Source: an uncultured Methanoregula sp.
Lineage (GTDB): Archaea; Halobacteriota; Methanomicrobia; Methanomicrobiales; Methanospirillaceae
Assembly (NCBI GenBank): GCA_964503195.1
Contig: CAZCZK010000001.1
Location: 1 to 62,944, forward strand
DNA length: 62,944 nucleotides
Reading direction: 5' to 3'
Shown: positions 1-36,905 of the stretch, in pieces
Layout: every line of letters begins with the position of its first letter
Numbering within the stretch: the first letter of the stretch is position 1
Translations under genes and position numbers: made by a program
The notes under the pieces: generated by a model
What the model was told of the DNA's origin: nothing
Databases searched by the model: none
Seen by the model: only the letters and a program-made list of their open reading frames with translations

Positions 1-49
1 CATTCGGAAAAGTTCATACAATCCTCCAGGATTTCATGGTTTTTTCTGC

Positions 50-1537
50 TCACGGTGCAGCAGGCTGCTGGCTGCCATTCTTCTTCCCTTCATTCTCAAG
101 GCCGACAAGATCGCGGAACTTCTTCAGGACCGGCTCGATCACGATCTCCAGCAGCCGGGCCTTGTCCTCCACTTTCCCGAAATAGTGGAGCGGGAGGTTG
201 GCGGCTGCCATGTTCGGGTGGCCGCCGGCATCACCCATGTCCCCAAACGCTTCGGACAGGGCGTTGCCGATATGCAGGCGGATGTCGCGGTTGCGGGCGG
301 AGATCACGATCGCATTGTCGGTGATACCGTACACGAGCGCCGTGTTCACGCCTTCGAGCGTGATGAGAAGGTCAGCTGCCTGCGGGAGGGCGTCGCGGTT
401 CATCACGTACCCGACATTTGCAAAGAGGTACCCGCTCTGGATCTTCCGTTTGCAGATAGCAGCGCCTATCACGTCGAGGGTCTCCTGCGACATGGACGGG
501 GACATGATCTTGTCGAGCAGGTCGGCATCGGTCAGCGGCAGCAGGAAGCCGGCATAACTCAGGTCCTGCGGCGTGACATTGCGCTTGAACTCCTTCGTGT
601 CCGTGCGGATGCCGTAGAGGAGTGCGGTCGCGACCCGCTTGTCAACCGGTATGTCGAGCTCCTGCAGGTACTGGGTCATGATGCTTGCCGTGGCCCCGGC
701 ACCGGGACGGATATCAACGAAATTGCTCTGGCCGGCCGCGTGCTTTCCCTCGCGGTGGTGGTCGATGATGATGTTGATCTTCGTTAAGGGAGGGACATCG
801 TTGTTGGCACCCGGCCCTTCGCAGTCGACCATGGCAAGGTAGGTGCACTTCGCGAGGGCATCGGGGGTCAGGTGCTCCATCTTGATATCGAGCAGGTTGA
901 CGAACGTGCGGTTCTCCTGGTGGCCGATATTGCCGTCGTACAGGATACGGGTGGTCAGTGTTTTTGTATTGGCCTGTTTCGCTATCTCAGCAAGTGCCAT
1001 GGCAGAGGAGATCGCGTCCGGATCCGGGTTCTTGTGGGTGATGATCCCGAGCGTTCCCTCCCAGCCGGCCAGAAGGGTGAAGAGTCGCTGCGAGATCCGG
1101 CTCGCGTGCTGTTTTTTTACCTGGAGGACTGCCTGCCGTGCAACCACTTCCTGCGGGTAGAAGACAAAATCTGCCCCTGCTGCGGTCAGGTTCTGGCCAT
1201 TCACCGGGTCGGTCGAGCGGGCAACGACCTGCACGCCGGGATACCGTTTTTTGATAGTGCGGACTGCCGCGAGGTTCACATCGCCGTCTCCGGTCATGAC
1301 GAACGCGATCTCGAACAGGGGGAGTCCCGTGAGGAGGTCCGATGAGGTCAGGTCCCGCTGGTATGCGTCGAACTTCTGGTCCCGGAGGTTGCGGACACGG
1401 GTCTCATCCTTATCTGCCACGATCACGCGCTCGTGCTCTTTTGCCAGCTCGAGAATGATGTTGTACCCGTTCGTCCCGCACCCGAAAATGCAGTATTTTA
1501 CCGGTCCCTGCTGCTCAAACGGGGCTTCCTGCGGCAT
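50..1537 (-). CDS. TrkA-N (RCK/NAD-binding) domain fused to DHH/DHHA1 phosphoesterase
   Basis: N-terminal GCGTNG Rossmann motif; HKNPDPDA, IIIDHH and GGHPNMAAA DHH-family motifs. Start moved to ATG 1537 (ORF track gives 1579). Confidence 0.88.
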   Translation of the reverse strand: MPQEAPFEQQGPVKYCIFGCGTNGYNIILELAKEHERVIVADKDETRVRNLRDQKFDAYQRDLTSSDLLTGLPLFEIAFVMTGDGDVNLAAVRTIKKRYPGVQVVARSTDPVNGQNLTAAGADFVFYPQEVVARQAVLQVKKQHASRISQRLFTLLAGWEGTLGIITHKNPDPDAISSAMALAEIAKQANTKTLTTRILYDGNIGHQENRTFVNLLDIKMEHLTPDALAKCTYLAMVDCEGPGANNDVPPLTKINIIIDHHREGKHAAGQSNFVDIRPGAGATASIMTQYLQELDIPVDKRVATALLYGIRTDTKEFKRNVTPQDLSYAGFLLPLTDADLLDKIMSPSMSQETLDVIGAAICKRKIQSGYLFANVGYVMNRDALPQAADLLITLEGVNTALVYGITDNAIVISARNRDIRLHIGNALSEAFGDMGDAGGHPNMAAANLPLHYFGKVEDKARLLEIVIEPVLKKFRDLVGLENEGKKNGSQQPAAP

Positions 1538-11949: not shown

Positions 11950-12444
11950 TTATTGCAGCATTTTCTGGGCACGGTCCCGGTTCTCCTGAGCTTCGGTAAA
12001 CTCGGGTGCTATCTGGAGTGCCCGATCAAAGGAGTCGCGTGCGGCCGAATAATTACCAACAGCCATCAACGCTTTCCCCCGGTTGTTCCAGACATAAGGG
12101 ACAAGAGTATTTCGTTCAAGTACCACATCATAAACCGCTATCGCTTCCGCAGAACGGTTCAGTTCCAGGAGAACATTCCCCTTATCTATCCACGCCCGGT
12201 TATACCCCGGATCCGCCGCTATCGCCTGATCGTAGAGATCAAGGGCCGCAGTGTAGTTTCCCGTGCTGTATGCAGCAAATCCCTGTTTATGAAGGTCGAG
12301 TGCTGCTGGAACCGCTGTCGTTGGCAGAGGTGTTGGGGAGGAGGTTGTTCCCGTAGTTTCCGTTTTATTTCCCAAACACCCCAGACTGAGCACGGTCACC
12401 AGCAGGAGGGCGATTAATCCCAGGACGATTCCTTTTCTGCGCAT
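11950..12444 (-). CDS. TPR-repeat lipoprotein
   Basis: Lipobox SLGC, Thr/Pro linker, about 3 TPR units (AWIDKG..L..L..AI..YD, VWNNRG..L). Confidence 0.88.
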   Translation of the reverse strand: MRRKGIVLGLIALLLVTVLSLGCLGNKTETTGTTSSPTPLPTTAVPAALDLHKQGFAAYSTGNYTAALDLYDQAIAADPGYNRAWIDKGNVLLELNRSAEAIAVYDVVLERNTLVPYVWNNRGKALMAVGNYSAARDSFDRALQIAPEFTEAQENRDRAQKMLQ

Positions 12445-12642: not shown

Positions 12643-13359
12643 TTATTCTTTCTTTGTCCTGACATATTCCACTGCGCCTGCTAACCCAATCAGCATTGCG
12701 ACCGGGAGAGCAAGAGTCGGGAACTCAGGAGAGGGAATGTTATGTTCCGGGATATAAACCCTGATAGCTATTGGCTGGGCTACCCAGTCATTCGCATCCT
12801 TCGTCAAGAGGGCAACGTAGTACTGGCCTTCTCCGGGAACAAAGGAACCAGCTGCAGCTGACTGGACAGCAGTCCAGTACGCCTGGAACTTCGCGTTATC
12901 ATAGGTTTTGATGTATGCATTGTCAGTGTACGGACCCGGTGAACTCTTTCCACCATCGAGCTTCCATAAGGCTGCCTGGGTTATCTTCCAGTCATCTGCA
13001 GAAGCGGTAAATCCATACTTGCTGCCATCAAATACATTGTTGGCGATCCAGTTGACTCTGTTCCATTCAATGGTACCCATGTAGTCAGGGTATGAGTTTG
13101 CGATTCTGGTATCCCATGTGGTCCATTCAGTACCATACCATTTCCCAAAAATCTTCCAACCCATACACATGGCATCTTGAGAGCCGGCCGGAAGTTCTGT
13201 GTCACCATTCTGGGTTACTATCTTGAAATAACTGTTTGGTGAATTGGGGCCAGTGATGTCGGCGTTCTTAATGGTCAGTGTAGCAGGTAACGCTGATGCT
13301 ACAGATACAAAGGCAAGCGCCGCAATCAACATCAGTATTACAAATTTCATCTTTCTCAT
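12643..13359 (-). CDS. PEF-CTERM surface protein with putative thioester (TED/TQXA) domain
   Basis: Signal peptide; C-terminal IPSPEFPT + TM helix + RTKKE; single Cys (DAMC), TQAALW and distal VAQPI. GGAGG RBS upstream. Confidence 0.88.
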   Translation of the reverse strand: MRKMKFVILMLIAALAFVSVASALPATLTIKNADITGPNSPNSYFKIVTQNGDTELPAGSQDAMCMGWKIFGKWYGTEWTTWDTRIANSYPDYMGTIEWNRVNWIANNVFDGSKYGFTASADDWKITQAALWKLDGGKSSPGPYTDNAYIKTYDNAKFQAYWTAVQSAAAGSFVPGEGQYYVALLTKDANDWVAQPIAIRVYIPEHNIPSPEFPTLALPVAMLIGLAGAVEYVRTKKE

Positions 13360-13656
13360 AATCACTCCTCCTGGAGATGATGTATACTATTTCACCGGTA
13401 TGTTATTAATAGATGCTTGGCACCAATGCAAGGCAACCCCTGTGTTTATATTTAACTCACGCTTGTTTGCAGGAATAGGTTGGCGAAACCGTGGAGAGGG
13501 TTCGGGACGATGGGGTACAATAGTAATCGGTTCAGTTGAGAGATAGTATGGTGCTTTTTTATCTCACCGTGATAGCCATGGTCGATAAGGGTGTCTTCAC
13601 CTGCTCCCGTATGAATAAAACAACCTTGCAGTACCGTTACAGAGATTTTCCGTTCG

Positions 13657-16188
13657 TCAGTTTGGGGTGAAAACGGATAATATCCGTTTTGCAAGATTTA
13701 CGAAAAATGTTGCTACATCATTGCTGTCTCCTGATACAGATGGCGTCTCACGGGTTTCAGGGGGCTTTTGTTGTGCGATGCTACCGGCTCGTTTTTCAAT
13801 CTTACTGCTATCAACATGCTGTTGGAATATGTCACCCTGAAGGTCCGGTTCCCCCTGGATTCGATAATCGAGTGAGGCATTTCCCTTGTTTGCTGATACG
13901 GAGTCAGTCTTCTTCGACAGGGTGATCCAGGGATTGTTTTGATACTTCAGGTACGATCCGCCAAGAAGGGTTACCTCTGCGTTATCAGCACCCTGGCGGA
14001 TAAAAGCCGTATCAGCATCGGTCGAGAATCCGGCAAATGAGGAGGTTCCTTTTCCGGTGTAGATGTAATCATCAGACGATGCTGAACTCACCTTTACCGC
14101 ATGTCCTGTCCCGGTTACAGGGATTTCGGTTGCAGATTTGGGGACTTCATCAGCGTAACTGGAGAGGAGGGCGGTGACCCGGTATTCCGAGGTGGTAGCC
14201 GGGGTCCTGAAGTACACAACCGGTGAATACACTTCTGACTCTGCAGAATATCCCCCGATTCTGCCGGTATTCTTTTCAATCAGGATTTCTGAGGAGGGCG
14301 CCGAGAATAAATTGAGCTGGACATCTTTTCCGTAGGGATTTTTGGTAGTCCAGGTGAGGGAATTCGTTGTAACGCCGGTAGGTGTTTCGGTTTTTGGCGA
14401 CAACGGCAGCCAGGTATAGGACGTTGATCCGATGACAAGGTTTCCATTGACATGCCCGATTTCTCCGGTATACTTGCCGTCTTTATTTGCATCAACTGTC
14501 GGGGTGACCATAAGGCTGGTTGGTCGGAAGATAGTGCGGTAAACCCAGGGCTGCGAACCTTCAAACCGGTCTACCACAACGAAATAGTCGGTGTCCGGGT
14601 ATACAATCGTGCGTTCGTACTGGACGGGGCTTGAAAGAGTCTGGGAAACACCATATCCTCCTGCATTCACTTTTGTGATGGAACCCGTGCTCTGCAGGAG
14701 CTGCATCCAGGGCACCTGGATGAGGGTGTTGACCGTCGCCGTCGTTGTAAGAACACCGCTCGATCCCTTAAAAATACCCGCTGATGTGCTGCCGGACATT
14801 GGTGTGAGCGCAAACGGGGTTCTCGGATCTTCAAGTGCTATGGTATTGTGATGGATAGCATACTCGCCATACGAACCTGTGTGCTTGGGTTCCCCGGCAT
14901 CAGCGAGGAGCAGGTCCCCGCGGCTGTAGTATTCAAACGCCAGCTGGTCATGATGCATCATGTCCCGGTTGCTTACGTCTGCTTTGTTCCAGGTAATCAG
15001 GGATAGCCAGTCCGCGTCGTCATTCCAGTTTTCACGGAATACCTGGTATATACTCTCGGGATCCAGATGGCTGATAGTAGCCGGAAAGGTACGGGGGATT
15101 GATGCATACTTTCCATAAACGCAATAGAGAAGTGCGCCGGAAGGGTTGCCCCCCATTGCTGAACTGTAGGGTAAAATCTTCGATGATTCTACCCGGTCGA
15201 GGTGGTTGAGTACCTGGCCTTTTTCACTATCCGACAGGAGGCTGATAAACCCTTTTTGATACGTCCATCTGGTGTTCCCGTTGGTGATGAAATTATTGCT
15301 GTAACCGTTTGGCAGGGATTCCCAGAGTTCGGAGGTGAAGGCTTTTTTTACTGCAGGGTATTTTTCCAACAGGTTTTCGCCGTAGGTATGGTTAGCAACC
15401 TGGAGCCATGTCGCGTACTCCGCGGTATAATAGGATTTATAGGCACCGATATAGTTTTTCCCGGTGGTTTCCTCAAACCCGTAACTGAAAAGCGATCGGC
15501 CCGAAGAATGGAGCTTATCATCCTCAAAAAGATATACCGTTCCGACTTTATTCCAGTCCGCCGGGGTTGACGATAGCGGCAGGTTATGGGGGTTGGTATA
15601 ATCTGATAGTGCTGCACCGGCAACTCCCACCATCGGGTATGCCTGACCATGGTAATCGGCAAATGTCACGTACTTCAGGTTTTTTCCATTGTCGTTGAGA
15701 TCTTTATAGACAGTATCAGCTAGCGTAGCTAATTTATCCCGGATAGTTGCATCCGTTGCTGGATCGAGCGACGGCTGGATGAAATCATAGGCGAGCGAAT
15801 AGGATCCTAACGCCAGAGCCCGGTCTGTTTTTCCGGATACCGTACCTACATCCAGATTCAGGAGGGCTTCACGGCCTTTCTGCGCATATTGGGGTTTTTT
15901 TGTTATCTGATAGGCAAGACCAAGATATTCGGCAAATCCTCCACGATACAATACCCGGTCATAGCTGCCCAGCGAACCGGTAAAATCGCGGGAAAGTGAC
16001 TGGTCTGCACCTGACAGGATACCCGATTCCCAGCTCTTCCAGGGTGCTATGGTGCGATACTGGTAACCCGGTGTTTCTCCGATGTTGTTAAATAATAATG
16101 CAGGATGGACAATCGGTGCTGCTGAAGTCATGACCGGAAACAGGATGAGGATGAGGAAAAATGCCCCAAACCCATGGGATATTTTCAT
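13657..16188 (-). CDS. Secreted heparinase II/III-like polysaccharide lyase (copy 1)
   Basis: Signal peptide from ATG 16188; helical toroid-like N-half; HHDQLAFEYYSRGDLLLADAG...Y...HNT heparinase II/III pattern. Confidence 0.78.
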   Translation of the reverse strand: MKISHGFGAFFLILILFPVMTSAAPIVHPALLFNNIGETPGYQYRTIAPWKSWESGILSGADQSLSRDFTGSLGSYDRVLYRGGFAEYLGLAYQITKKPQYAQKGREALLNLDVGTVSGKTDRALALGSYSLAYDFIQPSLDPATDATIRDKLATLADTVYKDLNDNGKNLKYVTFADYHGQAYPMVGVAGAALSDYTNPHNLPLSSTPADWNKVGTVYLFEDDKLHSSGRSLFSYGFEETTGKNYIGAYKSYYTAEYATWLQVANHTYGENLLEKYPAVKKAFTSELWESLPNGYSNNFITNGNTRWTYQKGFISLLSDSEKGQVLNHLDRVESSKILPYSSAMGGNPSGALLYCVYGKYASIPRTFPATISHLDPESIYQVFRENWNDDADWLSLITWNKADVSNRDMMHHDQLAFEYYSRGDLLLADAGEPKHTGSYGEYAIHHNTIALEDPRTPFALTPMSGSTSAGIFKGSSGVLTTTATVNTLIQVPWMQLLQSTGSITKVNAGGYGVSQTLSSPVQYERTIVYPDTDYFVVVDRFEGSQPWVYRTIFRPTSLMVTPTVDANKDGKYTGEIGHVNGNLVIGSTSYTWLPLSPKTETPTGVTTNSLTWTTKNPYGKDVQLNLFSAPSSEILIEKNTGRIGGYSAESEVYSPVVYFRTPATTSEYRVTALLSSYADEVPKSATEIPVTGTGHAVKVSSASSDDYIYTGKGTSSFAGFSTDADTAFIRQGADNAEVTLLGGSYLKYQNNPWITLSKKTDSVSANKGNASLDYRIQGEPDLQGDIFQQHVDSSKIEKRAGSIAQQKPPETRETPSVSGDSNDVATFFVNLAKRILSVFTPN
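15593..15768. repeat. 176-bp segment identical to 29137-29312 (paralogous lyase genes)
   Basis: Base-by-base comparison shows identity; flanking regions differ at many synonymous sites. Confidence 0.85.
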
Positions 16189-16398
16189 CTGCAAAACGCC
16201 TTCTCCTATAATAATCATTATTATCGGATTAAAAGCAGTTGGCAATGTACCAATGATCCAAAGGGGAGGCATGGATTCTTTTTGGGGGATCCTGCAAGGG
16301 CACTGGAGGAATAAAAGGATTTAACAATTTATCTTGGAATAACTAATACAGACAGATAGTGAGGTTGTATTCACTATCATGACACGGGTTTACTGAAG

Positions 16399-19300
16399 AT
16401 GCAAGGAAGAAGAAGCTGGCTGCACAAAATTCAACATTTTGTTGAAGCTTTTCGAACGAAAAATGCATGGAACAGATACTCGGTAATCTTATCTGTTTTT
16501 TTGCTGGCAGTTATTCTTATTTCCTTTGTTATACCGGTAATAACCTTTGGACGTTTTCTTGGAACTGACGATTATACCCATCTGTTCCATACCAAAATGA
16601 TGATTTCATCCAACGGGATGGAGGATTTTTATAATAAGATGGGGGATTACGTGTACAATCCCGCCAGTAGTGATAATGATTATAACTACCCGTTTGGATT
16701 ATGGCTCGTGGGAGCGACAATTGCAAAAATAACAGGGATGTCACTCACGAGTGCGGAATTGATGTTTGTTATTCTCTTTCTCCTGATTATTTTCGGCTCT
16801 TTTTATATATATTCCGGTACATTTCTGGAATTAAAAGAGCAGAAAATACTGGCCGTACTCTTTCTCCTCTCAATGCCTTCAACAACCCTTCAAATTTTAT
16901 CGTACCGTTCTTCTGTTTTTATCCTGCCGTTCCTGTATATTCTCCTGTACATTATGTTCAAGGAACCAGTTCAATGGCAGTTATTCCCGATTGTCTGGTT
17001 GTTCCTGTTTGTCATCACCATCAGTCATACGGGAACATTTATATTTCTTATTAGTTTTTTAATTGTGTTTTTCCTCTTGTATTGCTTATTGTGGGGGAAC
17101 ATTTCCTATCCGGTCTATATTACGATCCTCAGTTCGTTTGTCATTTATGTTTTCTCACTCGCATGGTTCCCTCACATTGCAAGTCAATACGCAATTAAAT
17201 CCACAATTTTTTTATCCCCGGGAAATCTCATTGAATCGAAACTGAATATTTCCCTGCTCTCGGAACTTGGACACCTTTTTTACCAGAATGCGCTCGTCAA
17301 TCAGGAGGTAATTTATTTCATCATAATCGGGGCGTTCATATTCACGGTCGGGAAATTATTGGTGTACATTCACCAGAAGGTTACTGAAAAATACTCGCAA
17401 ACGGCACGTGCTTATCCGGCTTCCATCCTGTCACTCGACATATCACATTCCGTAATTGCAGCACCATTCTGGCTTGGCCCGGTTCACGTGATTTTTTCAT
17501 TTTTCGGTTTTTTCCATATTAACCCGAAAGGGAAATGTATGCTCATCTCAGCATTACTTATCACCCTCTTACCTGAAGTTATGCTGAGTGCACAGGGAAT
17601 CAACGCGGCAACAGGATCGCTCAGGGAGATCAGTTATCTCACCATTATTATTCCCATCACCGCCGTTCTCGGTCTATGGGCGGTTATTTCGGCTCTTGGT
17701 TCCACCAGGCTCACGTATAAAAATCTGCTGGTATTCCTGGTATGGCTTCTTGTGTTACTGACCGTCATAATCACCCCGATACTGGCAACCACCTATTACT
17801 CTCCGAAAATTGCTGGTGAGGATTATATCAATGACGGAATGAAATGGCTTGGCGATACGGGAGATTTAAACGCCAAAGTCAGCGGATATGGCTACCGGAC
17901 GGTTCCCATTTACACAAATATGTCCGATGCCAGTTATGGACTGGCATCCGGAGGAGAGACAAGGACATATGTACGATTACTTAAAGAAATTTACTTTTCT
18001 TCTGTCGGAAACGGTGTGAATGATCTGAAGAATCTTTTCGGGGTGAAATATATCCTTGTATCCGATAAACTGATCACAAATTTCGGGGAAAATACCAGTT
18101 CTCTCAAGATTGACAACAACCCTGAATTGAATAAGATCTTCTCCAGTAAGGATTTTGGCGTCTACGAGGAGATTGCCACTTCAGAAGACCTGAAAGAAGC
18201 CAGGTTGTTGGCAGATAACGTTTCTTTCCAGCAGACCGGGTCTTCCCTCGAGATCGTAACTGACGTTTACAAGGTCGTTTTGAATGCAAATAATCCAATC
18301 ATAGAACAGTTTGGATCGCCCCGGGACAATTATCTTGGTGGCGGGGTTTTCTCGGATACTATTCAGCTCTCGGGACTACGGCGAATTCAAGTCGATATGT
18401 TTGGTACTGCTGAGGAATATTCAGAAGATCAGAAATCAATGGTAGATCGCTACAATTTGAATAGCCTGAACATTCCGTACGAGTTAAAAGATAATCAGAT
18501 CATCTACACGACCATCTTAAAAGATCAAAATGGTGATGATCAGGCATCATTACTTGTCCGGTATACGTTTTATCCAACCTGTGTCAAACGGGAATTCCTC
18601 ATATCGAATGACTGGGTAACAGCAACTTCTCCAGTAACACAAAATATGAAGGTGATTTTCGGAACACGGTTGTTTTCACCTCTCAATGATTTTATCATCA
18701 AAAACAATCAGAGCCGGTTAAAAAGACACATGTATCCCAATCTGGACAGTGTGGATTTGAACACAAAAATCCAGGGGTTGTATCTGTATAACGGGGACCA
18801 GGGTATTTATATAAAGAATGAGCCGACATCGACGTATCCCACTGAAATATATTATGCGGGATCCACCCTGTATAATTTAAGCAGCCTGAGTTTTTCGCAA
18901 GCTGCCTCGCTCACGCCGGGGGCCAGCCTGGATATCACCCAGTTCCTTGCACCAGGAGATGAGATCTCCGCAGAAGAGAATGTCCTGACCCGGGAGGGGA
19001 TTAGTCTCGTGAATTATCCTGACGGGATGATCCCAATCATGTTGTCCGGCTATCGTACCCTGAATTCAAATAGCAGTGCAGATGGTCCTCTGGAGAGGGG
19101 ATATCAGGTGTTACTGGAGGAGAATATTCCCTACTCCGAAGTGGTGGCTCCTTATGAGATCCAGGGTAATGCAGCTGATGTCCAAAACATGACAAAAGTT
19201 GATTTGAGAAAGATTACCAATAAAAATTCCAAGATTATCACCAGGGGAAGCGTTATAGATCCAGCGAGTATTTTTGAAGGATCACGGCGTTTTGGTAATT

Positions 19301-20331
19301 TCAGTACCCAGGAAGGATCCATTGCATCCATGATCGATTATGCAGACAGTTATAACGCACCTTTGATCGGGTATATGCCAGCCTCGATGGATTATAATCT
19401 GGATACCCTAAAAATTGTTTCCGACAACAACATCCCCCTGATCATTTCAAGAGGCGTGACTCCACCCTATCTGGGACTCTTCGGCATGCAAAATAAGTAT
19501 CCTCAGATGGCATCGTATCAGAATTCACCAACCGAAGTAGCGTTAATGCCTGTCTCCTCTCCCATGAGCAATTCACTTTCTACCCGGAACGTGTCAGGTA
19601 CAAATAATGCCCAGATATTTTCCTCATGGACCGCCTCCATCGATGAAGCAGCAATGACCAAGACAATGCTCTTCATGATCCTTCGATCCGAAGAGATCGG
19701 TAATCCGGATTTTACGGATAAATTTAAAGCGCTGTTTGCATATGCAAAAGACCACGGTCTGACATTTACCACACCGGATATCATTGCAGATCATCTGAAA
19801 AAAATGCAGAATATCCAGTGTTCCGGTTCGATTGATAATGACATAGCAACGATTAATCTGACAAATAATAATGATGCCCCGGTTCAGCAGGTTGCTGTCA
19901 GAATTGTGCTGCCCTCCCTGAAAAACGGTAATTATGTCGCGGACGGAGGGAATATCGTGAAAATGGAAGCGGATAACAAGAGCACGATTCTTTACGTGAG
20001 CACGGACATTTCCGCACATGCTGCCAGGGATATTACCATCGTACCGGATACCCGTCGTGAGAAGATCGTTGTGACCATCCCCCGGCAACCAATAGCCGGG
20101 GGGATAACCATTTCTCTGGAAGATAAAAACGGGAAACCATTAACGGACGCATATGCAATTATTGATTCAAAATATTATCAACCGGATGAAAAAGGGGATG
20201 TGAATGTTGATTTACAGCGGGGTATCCATTCGTTAGAGATCCGGTGTCCGGGATATGAGGTGTATACTTCAACCCTGAACGTGAAAGGCAGAATATATTT
20301 GCTTGAGCAGTTTTTCAGGAATGCCTCATGA
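16399..20331 (+). CDS. Large membrane protein: GT-C-like multi-TM domain + extracellular region with degenerate deacetylase-like and PEGA-like parts
   Basis: About 13 TM helices with first-loop GTDDYTH acidic motif; GVKYILV...KIFSS..FGVYE periplasmic motif; GYMPASMDYNLDTL; C-terminal GIHSLEIRCPGY. Confidence 0.65.
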   Translation: MQGRRSWLHKIQHFVEAFRTKNAWNRYSVILSVFLLAVILISFVIPVITFGRFLGTDDYTHLFHTKMMISSNGMEDFYNKMGDYVYNPASSDNDYNYPFGLWLVGATIAKITGMSLTSAELMFVILFLLIIFGSFYIYSGTFLELKEQKILAVLFLLSMPSTTLQILSYRSSVFILPFLYILLYIMFKEPVQWQLFPIVWLFLFVITISHTGTFIFLISFLIVFFLLYCLLWGNISYPVYITILSSFVIYVFSLAWFPHIASQYAIKSTIFLSPGNLIESKLNISLLSELGHLFYQNALVNQEVIYFIIIGAFIFTVGKLLVYIHQKVTEKYSQTARAYPASILSLDISHSVIAAPFWLGPVHVIFSFFGFFHINPKGKCMLISALLITLLPEVMLSAQGINAATGSLREISYLTIIIPITAVLGLWAVISALGSTRLTYKNLLVFLVWLLVLLTVIITPILATTYYSPKIAGEDYINDGMKWLGDTGDLNAKVSGYGYRTVPIYTNMSDASYGLASGGETRTYVRLLKEIYFSSVGNGVNDLKNLFGVKYILVSDKLITNFGENTSSLKIDNNPELNKIFSSKDFGVYEEIATSEDLKEARLLADNVSFQQTGSSLEIVTDVYKVVLNANNPIIEQFGSPRDNYLGGGVFSDTIQLSGLRRIQVDMFGTAEEYSEDQKSMVDRYNLNSLNIPYELKDNQIIYTTILKDQNGDDQASLLVRYTFYPTCVKREFLISNDWVTATSPVTQNMKVIFGTRLFSPLNDFIIKNNQSRLKRHMYPNLDSVDLNTKIQGLYLYNGDQGIYIKNEPTSTYPTEIYYAGSTLYNLSSLSFSQAASLTPGASLDITQFLAPGDEISAEENVLTREGISLVNYPDGMIPIMLSGYRTLNSNSSADGPLERGYQVLLEENIPYSEVVAPYEIQGNAADVQNMTKVDLRKITNKNSKIITRGSVIDPASIFEGSRRFGNFSTQEGSIASMIDYADSYNAPLIGYMPASMDYNLDTLKIVSDNNIPLIISRGVTPPYLGLFGMQNKYPQMASYQNSPTEVALMPVSSPMSNSLSTRNVSGTNNAQIFSSWTASIDEAAMTKTMLFMILRSEEIGNPDFTDKFKALFAYAKDHGLTFTTPDIIADHLKKMQNIQCSGSIDNDIATINLTNNNDAPVQQVAVRIVLPSLKNGNYVADGGNIVKMEADNKSTILYVSTDISAHAARDITIVPDTRREKIVVTIPRQPIAGGITISLEDKNGKPLTDAYAIIDSKYYQPDEKGDVNVDLQRGIHSLEIRCPGYEVYTSTLNVKGRIYLLEQFFRNAS

Positions 20332-20444
20332 TGTCCCGGGTGCAGGGCGGATGATGCGAGGGGTGAGAATGGTTTGTTTTAACTCCAATAAAAACTGACA
20401 GGTTCGATAAAGAGTAAGAAAAAATTCATAACCGGGTATCCACA

Positions 20445-21884
20445 ATGCAAAAAAATCTCTCATTTTATACCTTTTTTTATTTGGGGGGGCTGATCATGAT
20501 GAGAGTGTGCGGGATACTTGCAAAGATCCTGTTAGCCCGCTCAATCACCCCCTATGAATACGGTCTGATCACATTACTCGTTATTGCGCTGCCCGGGACC
20601 TTGCAGGTCATTACCAATTTTTGTTTTTTTGATATTATGGGTCATTCTGTGGAAGGAAAAAGATATTTTAGTTTTTCCCTTATGTACGGAATGATCACCT
20701 CCCTGATTATTTTAATCGTCTTCCTCGTATTTCCGGAAGCGATTTTTCAGTTTCTTAACCTGCCTTTGCAATCCTGGCTTCTCTGGAGCGGTATCTTATT
20801 TGGAGTCCTCCTTTCCGTTACCCTCGGGGGGGTAATCACCGGCATGTTACGAGGGCAAAGGTCCCATTCACTTTCTTCTGCATTTTCTGCAGCGCCCAGC
20901 ATTTTAAGAATTGTTTTTATCGTAGCGGCAGTATATCTGTTCGGGATTACTGACTTTTATCAGATTCTGGTGATATTTGCCCTTCCCCCGGTCGTCGCAT
21001 TAATACCCGTGATTATGTACAAAAGAAAAGCGATATATGAGTCCTTCCACGCTATCACTGTACCCGACCGGGATATCCTCCTGTTTGGCTTCTCCTTTTT
21101 TATTTTAAATGCGTGGGTATCATTGGGTCAGCATATCAACTCTATCGTGATAAGTCATGATCTCGGTATCGTTTGGCAGGGATATTTCGATGTGTCCCTG
21201 AGCCTCGTTGCAGTCATTTCCTTTTTCTCCGGGGCAATTTACTTGATCTCAGCACCCGAAACCTCTGCAAATCCCAATAGTTCTGAAATACTCAGGAAAC
21301 GCGGGGGTTTTGCAGATATCAGCCGCCTGTTTCTTTCAGCGTGCCTGCTCTGCGTTCTGATATTTTATTTCTACTCCCACCAGCTTATCGGGATTTTGTT
21401 CTCCTCGGATTATGCCCCTGCGGGAGATTATCTTATCATACTTGCGATAGGATACATGGTCTTATTCGTGCAGCAGTATTGCGCTTATTTATCGATTTCA
21501 AGTGAGAAAGAAGGAGTTTCGCGATTGACAATCCTCACAGTTGCCAGTATCGCAGTTTTTCCCGTGTTTACCCATCTCATGATCCAGCAATTCCAGTTCA
21601 TGGGAGCCTACCTTGCTATGACCAGTCTGATAGTTATCTATACCATCATAACCCTGCTTTTAATCAAGGATAATACACCGTTTAAGCTGTTACTCTCCCG
21701 GCCCGACCGGCTGGTTCTTTCTGGTGCCACAACCTTTGTTATTTTGTATGTTTTCCATTTTCCACTCTTTACCGGTCTCGTCGTATCAACCGTGACCTTT
21801 TTGATCATGATTATAGTATCCGGATATATTGAGAAAAGTATGGTAACCGATCTGGTATCATCCATAAAATCGAAAATCCATTGA
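20445..21884 (+). CDS. Oligosaccharide flippase (Wzx/MOP family)
   Basis: About 14 TM; LLARSITPYEYG and LFSSDYAPA MOP-type motifs. Confidence 0.8.
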   Translation: MQKNLSFYTFFYLGGLIMMRVCGILAKILLARSITPYEYGLITLLVIALPGTLQVITNFCFFDIMGHSVEGKRYFSFSLMYGMITSLIILIVFLVFPEAIFQFLNLPLQSWLLWSGILFGVLLSVTLGGVITGMLRGQRSHSLSSAFSAAPSILRIVFIVAAVYLFGITDFYQILVIFALPPVVALIPVIMYKRKAIYESFHAITVPDRDILLFGFSFFILNAWVSLGQHINSIVISHDLGIVWQGYFDVSLSLVAVISFFSGAIYLISAPETSANPNSSEILRKRGGFADISRLFLSACLLCVLIFYFYSHQLIGILFSSDYAPAGDYLIILAIGYMVLFVQQYCAYLSISSEKEGVSRLTILTVASIAVFPVFTHLMIQQFQFMGAYLAMTSLIVIYTIITLLLIKDNTPFKLLLSRPDRLVLSGATTFVILYVFHFPLFTGLVVSTVTFLIMIIVSGYIEKSMVTDLVSSIKSKIH

Positions 21885-21997
21885 TGGATCCATTCCCGGT
21901 AACTCTCGACTGAATATAGATAAAAAAAAGCGACTTCACGACGGGAAGAGACCCGACAAGATCCCATTTTATCGAATTCTCGTAAAGGTTCTTTACC

Positions 21998-22996
21998 TTA
22001 AGATATACTGATACCGTGATTCCCGAAATAGCGTTCAAGAGTCCGACCATATTTATCCATTGTTGGGGATTTTGTCCGTGACTCCAGATCAAACCAGTAA
22101 ATCGAATTTTTTTCACAGTCTCCCTTGATAGGTTCAGGGATACCAAATGAGATCAGAAGACCGGGTTTTTTGTATTTTTTCATTTTTTCATCTATTTCCG
22201 AAAAGAGGTCCGTCCTGGGGAGAAACAGGATAGTCCGATTCTGAAAAAGGAAGATCATTTCAAGGTTGTCCCAGGATTTGACCGGGATGATGTTCTCCTG
22301 GTAGACATGCATAAAATCCATCAGGATATCTTTTACGATGATATTTTTATCTTCAGGAGTTAAATTTCTGCGTCTTTCAGATGTTTTAGCAATCCCCTTT
22401 GCAGGCTGCCCCACCACCACTGTGTCAGGGTTCACATTTTTGGTAACAACGGATCGTGCACCGATCGTTGCATCGTGCCCTATGGTAACACCGGGCAATA
22501 CAAAGACATTTCCACCTACGTAAGTGCCGTCCTCAATAATAATCGGGCCAAAATCGTAGGGAGCCCCATCGAGAACCGGGTGGAAAACCATGTGGGTATA
22601 AAACCAGCCGCCACCCCCAATCCCGATATCATTACCAAGGCTTATGTCCCTTCTCAGATCAAAATGACATTCCTGGTCGATATATACATTTTTTCCTGCG
22701 GTGAAATCATGTTGTCCCGATATTCTTGTATTGTTTTTTATCTGTGTACCGGTTCCCAGGGAAAAATTGTTAGAGAAAATATGGACACCGTCTCCTACCG
22801 TCACATCGTCGCCAATATGGATTTTTTTAAATTCATACCCCAGGGGGATAATAAAGGAGCCGAGACCAAGCTCTACATTTTTCCCGATTCTTGCTCCCAT
22901 ACACCGATAGAGGAATATTTTCAATTCGGAGGGGAGATAGGAAAATCCTACGAGCGCCATTTTCTCCAGATATTTAACCAACGACAAGAGAATCAC
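21998..22996 (-). CDS. Hexapeptide-repeat (LbH) acyltransferase with C-terminal extension
   Basis: Repeated IG/VG hexads; PIIIEDGTYVG..VFVLPGVTIGHDATIGARSVVTKNV...VVGQPAK. Confidence 0.88.
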   Translation of the reverse strand: MILLSLVKYLEKMALVGFSYLPSELKIFLYRCMGARIGKNVELGLGSFIIPLGYEFKKIHIGDDVTVGDGVHIFSNNFSLGTGTQIKNNTRISGQHDFTAGKNVYIDQECHFDLRRDISLGNDIGIGGGGWFYTHMVFHPVLDGAPYDFGPIIIEDGTYVGGNVFVLPGVTIGHDATIGARSVVTKNVNPDTVVVGQPAKGIAKTSERRRNLTPEDKNIIVKDILMDFMHVYQENIIPVKSWDNLEMIFLFQNRTILFLPRTDLFSEIDEKMKKYKKPGLLISFGIPEPIKGDCEKNSIYWFDLESRTKSPTMDKYGRTLERYFGNHGISIS

Positions 22997-23144
22997 CCGG
23001 TATTTCTCTAGGTTACCGTATGGGAAGCAATCTATTTATTAGATATCTGATTTGTATGATTCTCACGATCCGTCCTATCTCAAAGCCATTTGGTCAGATT
23101 AGGCTGAAAAAGCAAATATCCTTATTATTTAAGAATAAATTCTA

Positions 23145-23576
23145 GTGTACTTACCTATGTTCCCCCAGGTGGAGTTGACGGACAGTTCAGGACTCATGAA
23201 AATCGCGGTGATAATTGCCGTTTTCCTTGGCCTTATAGCAGCAATTTTTTTTATCGTGATTCAGAAGGAATCCTATTCGGCAATTTATTTCGTTCCTGAT
23301 AGCATTACCCACGATACCGTTGAGAATGCCGTTTTTTTTACCTACGGTATAAAATCATCTGAAACGGGAAAAATGGATTATACCCTTAATACATTTGCAG
23401 AAAAGACGCTCCTGAAAACCAGGACTTTTTCTTTAAACCAGGGAGAGATTTTTGAGGAGCGGGTAAAGATAACCATACCCCCCGATATGAACTACCCGTT
23501 GAAAATCAGTCTTAAAATGACAACGAACGCGGCAACAGAAGAAATTCATTTCTGGTTACCAGAGGTAAGGCAATAA
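23145..23576 (+). CDS. Membrane-anchored protein resembling the DUF1616 C-terminal domain
   Basis: One TM helix then beta-rich domain ending EEIHFWL; start could be 23157 or 23196. Confidence 0.6.
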   Translation: MYLPMFPQVELTDSSGLMKIAVIIAVFLGLIAAIFFIVIQKESYSAIYFVPDSITHDTVENAVFFTYGIKSSETGKMDYTLNTFAEKTLLKTRTFSLNQGEIFEERVKITIPPDMNYPLKISLKMTTNAATEEIHFWLPEVRQ

Positions 23577-23763
23577 TCCCCGTTAAAAACCTGTTGTGCC
23601 TTTTTTCGCTGAAGGATCCCATTGTCATTATCCATTCAGGAGCAGATCGAATGACATTCCCTCTTGAATAAAACACTCGTTATGATACACAATGAATGTG
23701 ATTTGTTGTGGAGTCATATACGAAAGTACTTTAGCGCCTTATAACATATTTTTTAGCGGACAC

Positions 23764-24669
23764 ATGCAAGAAACAATACCTTCCCTTGCCCGGGATATAC
23801 AAAAAGTTGCGTTAATCTGGACCGCTTTTTGTCTTTTAACTCTGGGCTCATTTATCCTGACCCAGAACTCCAGTTACATGGAAATTGACGCGTTAAGCAT
23901 GTGGATCCTGTCATGTGTTGCGATTATTTATCTCTCTCAAAAATATAAGGGGCAGACGGTCAGCACTCCAGATTATTTTTTTCTGATTATCGGATTTTTG
24001 ATGTGTTTACTGAGTTTTTTCTGTATTCCCCTGGGTATTACGAATCCCCCCTTTTCGATTGGAGAATTTTCCCTGTTCCTCTCTGGCATGGGAGTTATGA
24101 TTTTTGCCCTTCTTGGCTTTCGATGGCTCTTGTTACCGGTATCTATTCCTTTCATAGCCGTCATGGGGTTTAGTGGATACGAAACGTTCCTGAGAAATGA
24201 GGACTGGATTACAGCCCCGCTGATTCCCGTTATAACAAATATCACTGTTGCCATGTTGAATTTCCTTGGTCTCAGCACTACTGTCACCAATGGAAACATT
24301 ATTTCTTTCATGTCCCAAACCGGGAGCCCTATCAATCTATCCATTGTGCCCGATTGTACCGGTATCTGGTCACTGGGCACATTTACCGTGACGGTGATTA
24401 TTGTACTTTCCAGTTTTCCAGCGAGTTTTACCAAAAAAAGCCTTGTATTAATAGCAATCGGGTATCTCGGAACGGTCGTTGCAAACCTTACCAGAATTGT
24501 ATTGATTGCACTTGCCGGTTATTTTTTTGGTCCATCCGGGGTAATTGAAAATGTCCATATCCATATCGGCTGGATTGTCTTTTCCGCATGGCTGATCATT
24601 TTTTGGTATTATTACTTCACGCGCCAGCTCGGTATCGTATTCTTTAAAAAGAAGAGTGAATCGGCATAA
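23764..24669 (+). CDS. artC: Archaeosortase (exosortase family), probably ArtC for PEF-CTERM
   Basis: About 8 TM; catalytic triad PDCTG (Cys), NLTRI (Arg), VHIHIG (His); a PEF-CTERM substrate lies in the same locus. Confidence 0.85.
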   Translation: MQETIPSLARDIQKVALIWTAFCLLTLGSFILTQNSSYMEIDALSMWILSCVAIIYLSQKYKGQTVSTPDYFFLIIGFLMCLLSFFCIPLGITNPPFSIGEFSLFLSGMGVMIFALLGFRWLLLPVSIPFIAVMGFSGYETFLRNEDWITAPLIPVITNITVAMLNFLGLSTTVTNGNIISFMSQTGSPINLSIVPDCTGIWSLGTFTVTVIIVLSSFPASFTKKSLVLIAIGYLGTVVANLTRIVLIALAGYFFGPSGVIENVHIHIGWIVFSAWLIIFWYYYFTRQLGIVFFKKKSESA

Positions 24670-24741
24670 GAAAAGAAATAATTGCTCTGCTGAAACATGG
24701 CATGGACGGGAGTTCACACCAGAAGCATGAAAATCTACGGT

Positions 24742-24853
24742 ACGAGGGCTCCCCGCATCAGGGCCCCTCCCTGGCACGGCGATGCAGACTGCCGTTTTTG
24801 CAGGTAATGGATCAGCCGCGGGCGTCCCTTTTTGGGGCGGCGGGGTTCATCGT
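24742..24853 (+). repeat. GC-rich multi-hairpin intergenic element (REP/MITE-like or structured RNA)
   Basis: Closing stem ACGA..CCCCGC/GCGGGG..TCGT; hairpins CAGGG/CCCTG, ACGGC/GCCGT and CGTCCC-TTTT-GGGGCG. Confidence 0.5.
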
Positions 24854-25004
24854 TCCTGAGTAGAATGAATTTGAAAACACCGTAAAATGTTTCACGGTAT
24901 TCTCGATTTAATATGAAAAACCTCCGGTATTTTCATCCGGTGTGCTCGTGGCCCTTTTCGCATCATGTTTGTTTTTCATGGGAAACCCTCTTTTCAAGTG
25001 ATGA

Positions 25005-25166
25005 TCGCTCCCCCTCGCGCCAAGCCTGCCCCCATGGGGGGCTCATGGCACACGCGATTGAGATTACCTTAATGGGAATTTCTTCTCCTCAGTCCCGTAC
25101 AGGAAATACGGCCTAATCGCAACCGGGGGATGCCAGGGCAGCGGGGGCAGAGCCCCAAAGAGCGTC
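25005..25166 (-). ncRNA. Structured non-coding element, copy A (homologous to 31829-31970)
   Basis: Reverse complement shares GGGC-nnn-GCCC hairpin, CCCCGGTTG, AATCGC..GCCATGAGCCCC and GGGCAGG with copy B; compensatory changes in stems. Confidence 0.6.
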
Positions 25167-25268
25167 AAAATTACTATCAAATGATGTCTACAGAGCAGAA
25201 ATAATCATACGTGATAAAAACCGGAAAAATTGTTTTTTCTTCCATCTGAAAAAAGGTAATTGTTTTCA

Positions 25269-28200
25269 CTATTCTAATTTGATGAAGACAGCATTTTGAG
25301 AGGAGGTCATTGTATCAATAACGGTAATACGAAGCAGCTTGCTGGTCAGAAGCTTCCCGTCACTGGTAACGAGGGTAATATCATAGGTACCGGCCTGATC
25401 ATATCCCGGAGTCCACGAGAACCGGTGGGTTGCGGAATCAACGGTTGCCCCCTTTGGCAGATTTTTTGCAGAGTAGGTGATAACATCATGGTTCCAGTCA
25501 CCGGCAACGATATTCAGCCGTATAATAGCTCCCTCGTTAACCGTTTTTGCTGTGAAGTTCCCCAAGGGGAAATAAGGTGCATAGTTCACTTTTACCGCGG
25601 TGAAAGTAACACTTCGGCTGACTGATACCGTTCCATCGGTTACCCTGAAGGTAACTACATAGTTCCCTGTCTGGGTGTATGCCGGCATCCAGGTAAACAG
25701 CCGTGTTGCCGGATCGAACGTTGCGCCCGAAGGGAGATTGGAGGCAGAATATGTCAGCGGATCTCCGTCAGGATCAGATGCCGTGACCCTGACATGTACC
25801 AGCTCCTTCTGGTTGACCGATGCATCTGCGATAGCTCCGATTACCGGGGCCTTATTGCTGACATTGTTGTTGTTAATCACAATGATATTGAGCAGTGCGC
25901 GTGCCTGAAGCTGCCCGTCACTAATAATTAAGGTAATATCATAGGTACCGGCCTGGTCATATCCCGGCGTCCATGAAAATGTATGCGTTTCAGAATCAAC
26001 GGTTGCCCCCTTTGGCAGGTTCGTTGCAGTATAGGTGATAGTATCTTCGTTCCAGTCAGCGGCTATGATATTCAGCTGTATCGTGGTTCCTGCGTTCACT
26101 GTTTTTGTGGTGTAGTTCCCCGATGGGAAGTAGGGCGGATAGTTCACTTTTACCGCCGTGAAGGTAACATTCCGGCTTGTTGTTGCTATTCCATCGGTTA
26201 CCCTGAACGTGACGGTATAGTTCCCCGTCTGATTGTATGCCGGCGACCAGGTAAACTTCCGGGTTTCCGGAGAGAATTTTGAACCAGATGGGAGGCGGGA
26301 GGCAGAGTATGTCAGGGTATCTCCATCCGGATCGGAAGCCGTAACATTAACGGTCAGTGTTTCTTTCTGGCTGACCGATACATCTGCGATAACTCCGAAT
26401 ACGGGTGCGTTGTTGGTGCTCTCACGAACGCTAATCTGTACTGACTGGTTATCCGAGAGCAATCCGTCACTTACCATGAACGTGACATTAAATGATCCTG
26501 CCTGACCATCTGCAGGTGTCCATGTGAACGTGTGGTTTGCAGGATGGAATGTTGCATTCTTCGGTAATTCGCCGGAGGAGTAGGTGAGTACATCCCCGTC
26601 TGCATCCGTTGCATTTATGGCAAATTGAAGAGTTGAACGAACAATTACGGTCTTGTTTTCAATATCCTCGAACACGGGGGCCCGGTTTAACAGGGGGTCC
26701 CGGTTTAATTCTTTCACCGTTATCAGCACACTTCTGCTGTCGCCCTGAAGACCATCAGTCACATTGAACACGACTATGAATTTCCCCGTCTGGTTTGTAT
26801 CCGGGGTCCAGGAAAAGGTCCTGGTCGCTGGGTCGAATGTTGCATTTCTCGGTAAATCACTGGCTGAATAGGTGAGCACGTCCCCGTCTGCATCCGTTGC
26901 ATTTATGGCAAATTGATGAGTTGAATGAACGACTACGGTCTTGTTTTCAATATCCTCGAACACGGGGGCCTGGTTTTCTTCTTTTACCGTTATCAGCATG
27001 GTACAGCTGTCGCTCATTCGACCGTCAGTTACCAGGAATGTTACCGAATACTTCCCTACCTGGTTCTCATTCGGAGTCCAGGAAAAGGTCCGGGACGTTG
27101 CATTAAATGTTGAATATTGAGGGAGGTTTGAGGCACTTGCCTGTAATTTTCCCGTTCCGGTGTAGGTGACGCTCAGCGGGACTGTCAGGTGTTCATCGAT
27201 ATTCACGGTCTGGCGGGAGATAGGATCGATGATCAGATAGTCTTCCGAGGATATTGCAAATTCGTGTTCGGTCAGGGTCGTGGAAATTGTCAGGGTCTTT
27301 GCATTTTGATCCGACACCCAGTCATTATAGACAACACCATCCCGTAAAACCCGGGTTCCCACAATATTGTTCAATGTGATGGATCCACTTAAATCGCCCT
27401 TGATTCTGAATTTAATTTCATTTCCTTCTCGTTTTAAGGTGAAATAGTCTAACTTTTTGCTAATGCTTACAATCGTTGAGGTATTCTTTTTAAGAGAGGC
27501 CCCGTTGATGAAGGTAAATTCATTATTGCTCCCGGCATTCCTGATGAAAGCCGTATCGGCATCGGTCGAATATCCGGCAAATGAGGATGTTCCTTTTCCG
27601 GTGTAGATGTAATCATCAGACGATAATGAACTCACCCTGACCGCATGTCCTGTCCCGGTTACGGGGATTTCGGTTGCGGATTTGGGGAGTTCATCAGCGT
27701 AACTGGAGAGGAGGGCGGTGACCCGGTATTCAGAGGTGGCAGCCGGGGTCCTGAAGTACACAACCGGTGAATACACTTCTGACTCTGCAGAATATCCCCC
27801 GATTCTGCCGGTATTCTTTTCGATCAGGATTTCTGATGAGGGCGCGGAGAACATATTGAGCCGTACATCTTTCCCGTAGGGATTTTTGGTAGTCCAGGTG
27901 AGAGAATTCGTTGTAATGCCAGTACGCGTTTCGGTTTTCGGCGATAACGGCAACCAGTTATAGGACGTTGAACCGATGACAAGATTTCCGTTGACATGCC
28001 CGATTTCTCCGGTATACTTGCCGTCTTTATTTGCATCAACCGTCGGGGTAACCATAAGACTGGTTGGTCGGAAGATATTGCGGTAAACCCAGGGTTGCGT
28101 GCTTTCAAACCGGTCTACAACAAGGAAATAGTCGGTGTCCGGGTATACAATCGTGCGTTCGTACTGGACGGGGTTTGAAAGAGTCTGGGAAACACCATAT

Positions 28201-29750: not shown

Positions 29751-29850
29751 GTCCCTTCACCTATTAACTCAATTGATTTTTATAATGGCAAAACCCCGCG
29801 AGTTCCAACTGATAACCATGAAGATCTAACGAATCGCGTAAAAGTATTCT

Positions 29851-29896
29851 ATTATTGTAAACTATATAATGCTTATCCTCAATGTATTACAATAAT
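29851..29896. promoter_or_regulatory. 10-bp perfect inverted repeat flanking a TATA-like box in a divergent promoter
   Basis: ATTATTGTAA-N26-TTACAATAAT; the spacer contains TATATAAT. Confidence 0.45.
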
Positions 29897-29991
29897 GTAT
29901 AGTGATTAAACAATCCTAAAGGAGTACATAAAAAAACAGTATATTGATATGTATTAATGTAAAAAATATTAAGTATAGTAGCGTGTTTTCC

Positions 29992-31701: not shown

Positions 31702-31828
31702 TAATAAAACAGGGTACTGTGCTATTTTTACCCCCGCGTTCAAGAAAGAAATACGAGGGGGAAATTCGAGAAATTGCCTGCCAAAAATGGAGAGTGAAAA
31801 AGTGCACCTGCCGGTGATTTTTAAAAAC

Positions 31829-31970
31829 GCCGACTCGTTGGGCTTCGCCCCGACACGATGGTGCCCCGGTTGTGGTAGTTCTGTATTAGCTCTACCATGA
31901 TTTGGAGTAATACAGAGGAATCGCATACGCCATGAGCCCCTAACGGGCAGGGATTGTGCAACGAGTGGCC
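31829..31970 (+). ncRNA. Structured non-coding element, copy B
   Basis: Terminal stem GCCGACTCGTTG/CAACGAGTGGC; GGGC-TTC-GCCC; nested ATGGTG/CGCCAT, TGTGGT/ATCGCA, CTGTATTAGCTC/GAGTAATACAG; GCCC-CTAAC-GGGC. Confidence 0.62.
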
Positions 31971-32006
31971 AATGTGGTTATGAGAGATAGACCTGCGCAC
32001 TCCCTT

Positions 32007-35806: not shown

Positions 35807-35808
35807 TT

Positions 35809-36894: not shown

Positions 36895-36905
36895 CGACCC
36901 GTCTC

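Follow-up and report, generated by a model that had tools for sequence, protein, structure and literature searches.

A stalk-less, PEF-CTERM-tailed protein with a predicted thioester-domain fold in a methanogen polysaccharide locus

In the window (the whole 62,944-nt stretch of methanogen DNA analyzed here) we found a gene for a small exported protein with a predicted thioester-domain (TED) fold, in which a conserved Cys and Gln, judged from structure models and alignment, likely form a reactive bond. The cell may use this bond to fasten itself to its own slime matrix. One relative is already known under a fitting name, since NCBI MDG6258188.1, 'thioester domain-containing protein [Methanomicrobiaceae archaeon]', is member P0063 of the family described below; the form described here is a stalk-less, PEF-tailed archaeal variant with Trp or Met before the Cys.

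Gene layout, predicted fold and Cys-Gln register

The open reading frame is real at 12643-13365 (-) when read from GTG13365. Its likely start is ATG13359, favored because the ribosome-binding site AGGAGGAG lies 5 nt ahead, and the gene would then occupy 12643..13359 (-) and encode 238 aa. Numbering from ATG13359 (C65, T127-W132, Q195, PEF211-213) replaces an earlier one from GTG13365. The overall layout is a signal peptide, one domain and a PEF-CTERM tail:

13365..13372 (-): ribosome-binding site AGGAGGAG, 5 nt before ATG13359
12643..13359 (-): gene for the TED-like PEF-CTERM protein, 238 aa (open reading frame, ribosome-binding site, relatives)
13291..13359 (-): predicted signal peptide, residues 1-23 (by eye; conserved in alignment A1)
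12748..13290 (-): class I-like thioester domain, approximately residues 24-204 (model, fold searches)
13165..13167 (-): Cys65, beta-strand end, predicted to form the thioester (conservation, register)
13036..13065 (-): WNRVNWIANN helix (alignment, model)
12964..12981 (-): TQAALW, a TQxx(hydrophobic)W motif on the central helix (sequence, alignment, model)
12775..12777 (-): Gln195, start of last beta-strand, predicted to form the thioester (conservation, register)
12643..12729 (-): PEF-CTERM tail with PEFP, hydrophobic helix and RTKKE (TIGR03024, sequence)

By eye, the signal peptide has a basic start, a hydrophobic core and an ASA end. The residues named in a sequence-only reading of this DNA are all in place in GTG13365 numbering: a sole Cys67 within DAMCMG, RVNWIANN, TQAALW at 129-134, Gln197 in VAQPIAI and PEF at 213. 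As a control, the 2253 ORFs of 150-350 aa in the same genome include just two with a Cys followed by TQxx(hydrophobic)W, so the pattern lies beyond chance. The TED-like domain is single-copy in the assembly, residues 24-210 have a calculated mass of 20,804 Da, the protein contains no N-glycosylation sequon, and a promoter and terminator scan stayed at chance level (3 versus 2.7 and 2 versus 1.2).

Sequence-only searches are insufficient to recognize the TED-like domain here. The Pfam TED model PF08341 scores 11.1 bits on this protein against a cut-off of 22 (E 0.58), and Pfam at E 0.05 returns no match for it; weak Pfam TED matches occur in 12 of 49 members (best E 9e-5), and in four relatives the weak match begins at the W-C motif. 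TIGR03934 does not match this protein and weakly matches 9 of the 90 members, while the best PDB sequence match aligns TQAALW to TQLAIW of FNE 5dcq at E 0.47. This library support is weak, yet all of it points to a TED.

The AlphaFold model of the full protein (pLDDT 89.3, pTM 0.88) consists of strands, a helical middle with TQAALW (helix 100-111) and a C-terminal hairpin. Among the best 20 Foldseek matches listed there is no non-TED, with Cpa, SfbI, CpTIE and FNE on top and Cpa 4c0z as best match (E 9e-5, TM ~0.5). A search of 48,161 chains by a method other than Foldseek placed eight TEDs at Z 8.4-9.5 and the next fold at Z 2.9, and the match to CpTIE there has Z 9.5 and an rmsd of 3.7 Å over 153 aligned residues; a further fold search gives CpTIE Z 9.8 and an rmsd of 3.5 Å, also over 153 aligned residues. 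Structure prediction and comparison with TED structures thus bear out the proposed TED fold, TEDs alone standing above Z 2.9.

In the full model the ends of the aligned ranges already set Gln195 on the bonding Gln of class I chains. A second model, cut so that it begins five residues ahead of the Cys (Cys as residue 6, Gln as residue 136; pLDDT 87.6), aligns to five class I domains as follows (model range on chain range):

CpTIE: 1..144 on 133..275, Cys on 138, Gln on 267
PnTIE: 1..144 on 89..255, Cys on 94, Gln on 247
SfbI: 1..143 on 104..268, Cys on 109, Gln on 261
Cpa TED2: 1..146 on 421..585, Cys on 426, Gln on 575
Cpa TED1: 1..145 on 57..220, Cys on 62, Gln on 211

We take 62/211 to be the bonding pair of Cpa TED1. 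The available part of PMC4450167 gives the bonding pairs 138/267 for CpTIE, 94/247 for PnTIE and 109/261 for SfbI, and that of PMC4282584 gives 426/575 for Cpa TED2. Judged by range ends, Cys and Gln of the trimmed model fall on the bonding pair in five of five class I domains, a register that assumes gap-free alignment of the first 5 and last 7-10 aligned residues; this agreement of the model at both ends is strong. Only 16 residues separate Gln195 from PEF and the protein contains no other domain, and with a predicted TED-like fold and Cys and Gln in bonding positions the earlier proposal of a minimal stalk-less TED is supported.

Class I chains align end to end with the model, and the beta-sandwich insertion of class II TEDs is absent, which rules out assignment to class II. 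An alpha-2-macroglobulin-type thioester is likewise ruled out, the sequence here being MCMGW with no CxEQ, and the single Cys rules out a disulfide role. In the portions of the literature available to us, Cys and Gln are the only universally conserved TED residues (PMC6194298) and the thioester is dispensable for TED folding (PMC4450167, PMC4282584). Because the bond is dispensable for folding, the joint conservation of Cys and Gln argues for a working thioester. By analogy with solved TEDs, the model makes it very probable that a Cys65-Gln195 thioester forms spontaneously.

Family conservation and distribution

Overlapping searches returned 49 and 65 relatives, and a 90-member alignment was built from 89 full-length relatives with the mature domain plus this protein, leaving aside fragments and tail-only matches. 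At a mean column identity of 26%, the Cys is kept in 88/90 members, the distal Gln in 90/90, the helix Gln in 89/90 and the helix Trp in 88/90. A W-x3-N-x3-N helix outside the published TED motifs is conserved to the same extent (Trp 89/90, first Asn 90/90, second Asn 89/90), and the least conserved parts are the loop following the Cys and the first strand. Cys-Gln spacing ranges over 100-133 residues in the family and is 130 in this protein; 42 of the 90 members have one Cys only. Two members, P0070 and P0077, have Ser and Tyr in place of the Cys yet keep the Gln, and are natural non-reactive controls.

The Met before the Cys, singled out earlier as a departure from Tyr/Phe, is real and a minority state: the preceding residue is Trp in 68 of the 90 members, Met in 13, Phe in 4, Tyr in 4 and His in 1. 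Among the 88 Cys-bearing members, 8 have Tyr, Phe or Leu at this position and 75 any aromatic residue. The MCMG found here departs from the literal [YFL]C(hydrophobic)(hydrophilic) motif, which is descriptive for class I TEDs and not universal. Qxx(hydrophobic)W is present in 87/90 members, with the strict TQ form in 28/90. The distal motif reads AQPIA against (hydrophobic)Q(hydrophilic)(hydrophobic)(hydrophobic), a weak motif from which it differs by Pro at +1, and positions +2 and +3 after the Gln are hydrophobic in 85/90 and 89/90 members. As it departs from the literal [YFL]C motif and stays under the Pfam cut-off, the protein is a W/M-Cys variant. In a tree built from 59 domain sequences the deep branches are poorly supported (16 of the 56 inner branches are open), which rules out reading an origin or direction of transfer from it.

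Distribution within the genus is patchy, with the stalk-less form in 3/48 other genomes, and 13 of 401 genomes matched in a phylum sample. The family profile matched 31 of the 301 genomes of the order, and 15 carried the full stalk-less form, a count that excludes tail-only matches and long and non-PEF forms (16/31 genomes). DNA sources carrying the gene are bioreactor, sludge and sediment metagenomes. Brockarchaeota and Nitrososphaerota records also hold stalk-less forms with a PEF tail near glycosyltransferase genes, and divergent stalk-less copies stand in tandem in two places, three on one contig in genome G157 (L070:510-3068), which has further family matches on other contigs, and two in L009:7854-9388. 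Cultured relatives include Methanovulcanius yangii WP_319642279.1 (stalk-less, PEF tail) and Methanofollis tationis WP_176788926.1, and such relatives in cultured methanogens make the TED reading testable.

With the single protein as query, no longer fused form appeared among 299 candidates, a blank that reflects limited sensitivity because profile searches of genomes do find stalked forms. Long SdrD_B/He_PIG proteins of three Acidobacteria records carry the domain at their N-terminal end, as does a HYR-repeat protein of a Verrucomicrobia record; it is N-terminal also in DUF7507/SdrD_B proteins with a VPxxxP tail, for example Methanohalophilus mahii WP_013036530.1, and internal in SdrD_B/SpaA proteins of related genera. 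The tip of a stalk, where stalked relatives carry the domain, is the usual place of a TED and supports the TED reading.

Several further observations concern these stalked forms. In the Acidobacteria and Verrucomicrobia loci (L012:7917-15044, L014:7728-11117, L015:7644-11648, L016:7644-10106) the domain tips long repeat stalks and keeps W-C, Qxx(hydrophobic)W and the distal Gln, in the manner of TIE-like adhesins in diderm bacteria. Stalked forms of 574-575 aa with DUF7507/SdrD_B repeats and a VPxxxP tail occur in L050-L052, L054 and L057, one genome holding two copies. The M. mahii record bears just the name 'SdrD B-like/Cna B domain protein', and none of the NCBI records of the M. yangii, M. 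mahii and M. tationis relatives is named a TED.

Sorting tail, locus enzyme and polysaccharide neighborhood

The PEF-type sorting tail and an exosortase/archaeosortase-family gene were both found in the same locus, alongside a TPR lipoprotein gene and a large polysaccharide cluster:

11950..12444 (-): TPR-repeat lipoprotein gene, 164 aa, 198 nt downstream of the TED gene
13657..55364 (.): polysaccharide cluster (family matches; orthologues beside the TED gene in other families)
23692..24669 (+): exosortase/archaeosortase-family gene, candidate processing enzyme (TIGR04178, PF09721, co-occurrence)

The tail has a PEF motif, a hydrophobic helix and a basic end, and its match to TIGR03024 (E 0.0057, 16.9 bits, under the 23-bit cut-off) is the only NCBIfam match of the protein; 70 of the 90 members match TIGR03024 at E <= 1. 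PEF tails are paired with archaeosortase C (ArtC), a pairing also reflected in NCBIfam names. The enzyme at 23692-24669 matches TIGR04178 at 48.8 bits (cut-off 23) and PF09721 at 70.6 bits, and reaches 31.8 bits against a cut-off of 100 for TIGR03762 (ArtC) and 26.9 against 208 for XrtA. Its identity as a canonical ArtC is ruled out by the TIGR03762 score, and the 89%-complete genome contains no cognate ArtC (TIGR03762) above cut-off. The enzyme fits no named subfamily and may belong to an unnamed PEF-specific one.

Two PF09721 genes are present in the genome, ArtA on contig C107 (199 bits) and the locus enzyme, and a crude filter counts seven PEF-type and six PGF-type tails. As the genome has these two enzymes, parsimony suggests that the locus enzyme serves the PEF tails. 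Its orthologues (44-61% identity) occur in 23 of the 301 genomes of the order: in 10/15 genomes with the stalk-less gene versus 13/286 without it and, within the genus, in 3/4 with versus 0/45 without, counts that include related, hence non-independent, genomes and several incomplete ones. Conversely, 13 of the 23 genomes with the orthologue show no stalk-less TED, and 5 of the 15 stalk-less TED genomes show no orthologue when the locus enzyme is the query. In the available part of PMC7157517, tail cleavage and lipid anchoring are shown for ArtA substrates only.

The polysaccharide cluster contains heparinase II/III-like proteins, two flippases, an acetyltransferase, a PIG-L deacetylase and a second deacetylase-like gene, four FemAB-like, six ATP-grasp, CapA-like and GT4/MraY-like genes. 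In three families (f1, f2, f4) the TED gene is bordered by orthologous polysaccharide genes, and near the copies in L066 and L069 the stretch around the gene holds no orthologue of the polysaccharide genes of the window. PEF-CTERM genes unrelated to the TED share the same loci (L061, L062, L063, L067). The TED gene lies directly upstream of the TPR orthologue in 6/6 same-genus genomes holding that orthologue (61 screened), in one of which the TED gene is frameshifted, and the TPR gene adjoins a TED gene in two further loci; in family f4 genomes, the stretches around the TED gene contain no adjacent TPR gene. Searching the order broadly for TPR proteins at E 1e-17 gave mostly generic ones, and that result was set aside.

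Other features of these loci deserve record. At L011 ~7860-8520 (the L044 locus) a TED-like gene upstream of a TPR gene is split across two frames near its start, and its neighbors are fragmented too, so that this is probably an assembly error. Two secreted paralogues at 13657-16272 and 25269-29750 (-), 77% identical over 355 aa, resemble heparinase II/III in their C-terminal part, and the longer of the two contains many Ig repeats; they are conserved in related loci and are candidate polysaccharide lyases or binders. A 1310-aa membrane protein at 16399-20331 (+) has no Pfam or NCBIfam match and is kept in the same cluster of other families at ~40% identity. The segment 32007-53973 carries the four FemAB-like and six ATP-grasp genes with one GNAT and one CapA-like gene, a set that suggests an amino-acid-decorated polymer, and a 529-aa ORF at 37529-39118 has no family match. 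Elsewhere in the genome, at L002:1492-2487 (-), another PEF-CTERM protein ends in a PGYW...QL.A.L.A..LN domain that by eye resembles the C-terminal part of the stalked Acidobacteria proteins (GFW...).

RNA-library contigs cover the TED gene in 4/4 libraries examined. An X16 contig spans 12637-13315 with 0 differences and an X18 contig 12628-13315 with 4 differences; contigs of X17 span the entire stretch and could come from DNA or from a related strain, and 9 kb outside the TED gene is mostly without cover in X15, X16 and X18. The runs were picked with a stretch that holds the TED gene, so that the contigs, which cannot rank genes by level, give a weak hint of its transcription. Some X16 contigs agree with part of the TED gene, within 12692-13065, before their sequence departs from it; they apparently stem from other family members in the sample.

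Proposed function, rival explanations and known systems

The best explanation, to which we give an even chance, is that the exported single-domain class I-like TED acts as a short covalent clamp between the cell and amines of its own matrix. As suggested by its sequence, the protein would be exported through the signal peptide, and folding would join Cys and Gln in a bond that very probably forms by itself with loss of ammonia. Sortase co-occurrence and the ArtA precedent suggest that the locus enzyme would probably then cut the tail, leaving the protein lipid-anchored or passed to the matrix. A primary amine would attack the thioester to give an amide link, as fibrinogen Lys does with SfbI, and since just 16 residues separate Gln and tail, the target amine would have to lie close to the cell. 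We tentatively place that target, at somewhat less than an even chance, on an amine close by in the matrix or envelope of the cell itself, the best candidates being de-N-acetylated or aminoacylated sugars made by the locus or Lys residues of neighboring surface proteins. The outcome would be a cell-bound matrix and aggregation, as in the Aquincola PepA/PrsT floc system but covalent.

We regard it as unlikely that stalk-less, sortase-anchored archaeal TED clamps target amino sugars of their own polysaccharide specifically. The basis for a glycan amine is the gene neighborhood, which does not single out a glycan, and the reactions described in the available parts of PMC4450167 and PMC6194298 involve protein Lys or small amines, not glycans. 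Against any self-matrix target, the position of the gene may reflect the sortase instead of the target, given the unrelated PEF genes, the mismatches between sortase and TED, and the L066 and L069 context. If such targeting is true, a TED that targets a glycan would be described for the first time, methanogens would have a covalent way of aggregating in anaerobic granules, and the clamp mechanism would be common to exosortase loci of other archaea and diderm bacteria.

The main rival to a self-matrix clamp is that the protein, a true TED, attaches the cell covalently to something foreign (syntrophic bacteria, other archaea, mating partners or surfaces), with polysaccharide genes nearby only because the sortase sits there. 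Precedent exists, as SfbI binds fibrinogen, a foreign partner (available part of PMC4450167), and a TED adhesin is needed in liquid mating of pLS20 (available part of PMC8092201). The divergent tandem copies fit varied foreign targets better than a self-matrix, and the variable post-Cys loop and first strand, the patchy distribution and the bioreactor, sludge and sediment sources point the same way. However, a stalk-less domain of ~21 kDa anchored in the membrane would hardly pass the S-layer, which would make attachment to a partner cell hard to picture; the stalked versions in related genera suit foreign adhesion better, and no conjugation gene is present among the window ORFs scanned. We judge foreign adhesion rather unlikely.

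A true TED could also act as a sacrificial envelope trap for amines on attacking enzymes or viruses, or as an acyl carrier that hands an acyl group on in matrix assembly together with the TPR lipoprotein. The adjacency of the two genes, the reversibility of TED linkages (available part of PMC13685950) and the unrelated alpha-2-macroglobulin thioester traps of archaea (available part of PMC8416519) speak for such roles, but bait region and cage domains are absent, in family f4 genomes no adjacent TPR gene lies in the stretches around the TED gene, and the literature searched describes no trap among TEDs of this fold; we consider them improbable. We assign as low a chance to a TED-fold protein without thioester, whether a non-covalent binder or one whose Cys has another role. 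The Met or Trp in place of Tyr/Phe/Leu before the Cys, the two members without Cys and the invariant helix absent from published TED motifs would suit it, yet retention of Cys and Gln in bonding register at such low identity is hard to explain without a bond that folding does not need, and in the members with a single Cys an internal disulfide is excluded. The covalent clamp on the cell's own matrix remains our preferred reading.

An archaeal family that is free-living and has neither stalk nor animal host would make TED chemistry more widespread and would require an environmental target. It would also give PEF-CTERM cargo a concrete, predicted biochemical activity and suggest, in a form open to test, how sortase cargo could lead to cell-bound polysaccharide and to the aggregation of digester methanogens. 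The TED papers of 2015, 2018 and 2026, in their available parts, describe the domain as Gram-positive and host-directed and call its biological purpose unclear. Our search, which lay outside subscription papers and supplements, found no paper on a TED of this type in archaea and none on MDG6258188.1, whose architecture is the same as that of this protein and whose identification is a database name only. The word 'archaea' is absent from the available parts of PMC4450167, PMC6194298 and PMC13685950, which call TEDs Gram-positive, and from that of PMC9210967; a term search of PMC13658579, on methanogen adhesins, gave no 'thioester', and the archaeal domains in the available part of PMC12617251 are isopeptide domains, not TEDs.

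Among known systems, the protein most resembles the class I TEDs with which it was compared (CpTIE-TED 5a0g/5a0d, Cpa 4c0z/2xi9, SfbI 5a0l, PnTIE 5a0n, FNE 5dcq; PF08341, TIGR03934). It shares with them a predicted beta-barrel plus helical fold with the Cys at a strand end, TQxx(hydrophobic)W on the central helix, the Gln on a C-terminal hairpin, a Cys-Gln spacing of 130 versus 129 in CpTIE, a signal peptide and a C-terminal sorting tail. Unlike them it is archaeal, only 8-16% identical, under the Pfam cut-off, has M-C or W-C for [YFL]-C and carries the extra invariant W-x3-N-x3-N helix of its family; unlike TIE proteins it has no isopeptide or ester stalk and a PEF-CTERM tail in place of an LPXTG anchor. 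The head-domain fold of class II TEDs (BaTIE 6fwv, SaTIE 6fx6, EfmTIE86 6fwy; pLS20 p34) is similar at Z 8.5-9.4, but the beta-sandwich insertion is missing here, and the spacing of 130 contrasts with 171-204 in three class II structures whose Cys-Gln pairs come from the available part of PMC6194298. Archaeal alpha-2-macroglobulin/TEP proteins (available part of PMC8416519) are also secreted, have a predicted Cys-Gln thioester and share the abbreviation TED, but their domain is unrelated, all-helical and built on a local CxEQ, as against a Cys and Gln 130 residues apart with no CxEQ.

On the side of sorting, the locus resembles PEF-CTERM/archaeosortase C systems and Aquincola pepA-prsT in its tripartite tail, exosortase-family enzyme and TPR lipoprotein gene by the cargo gene, and shares with pepA-prsT type systems sensor kinase, FemAB-like and deacetylase genes in a polysaccharide cluster. 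It differs from ArtC and XrtA systems in an enzyme under both cut-offs, and its TPR protein has 164 aa as against the 899 positions of the PrsT model. In Aquincola, according to the available part of PMC9850573, a PEP-CTERM gene upstream of a TPR lipoprotein gene is needed for cell-bound polysaccharide; a reactive bond, not reported there for PepA, is predicted in the cargo here.
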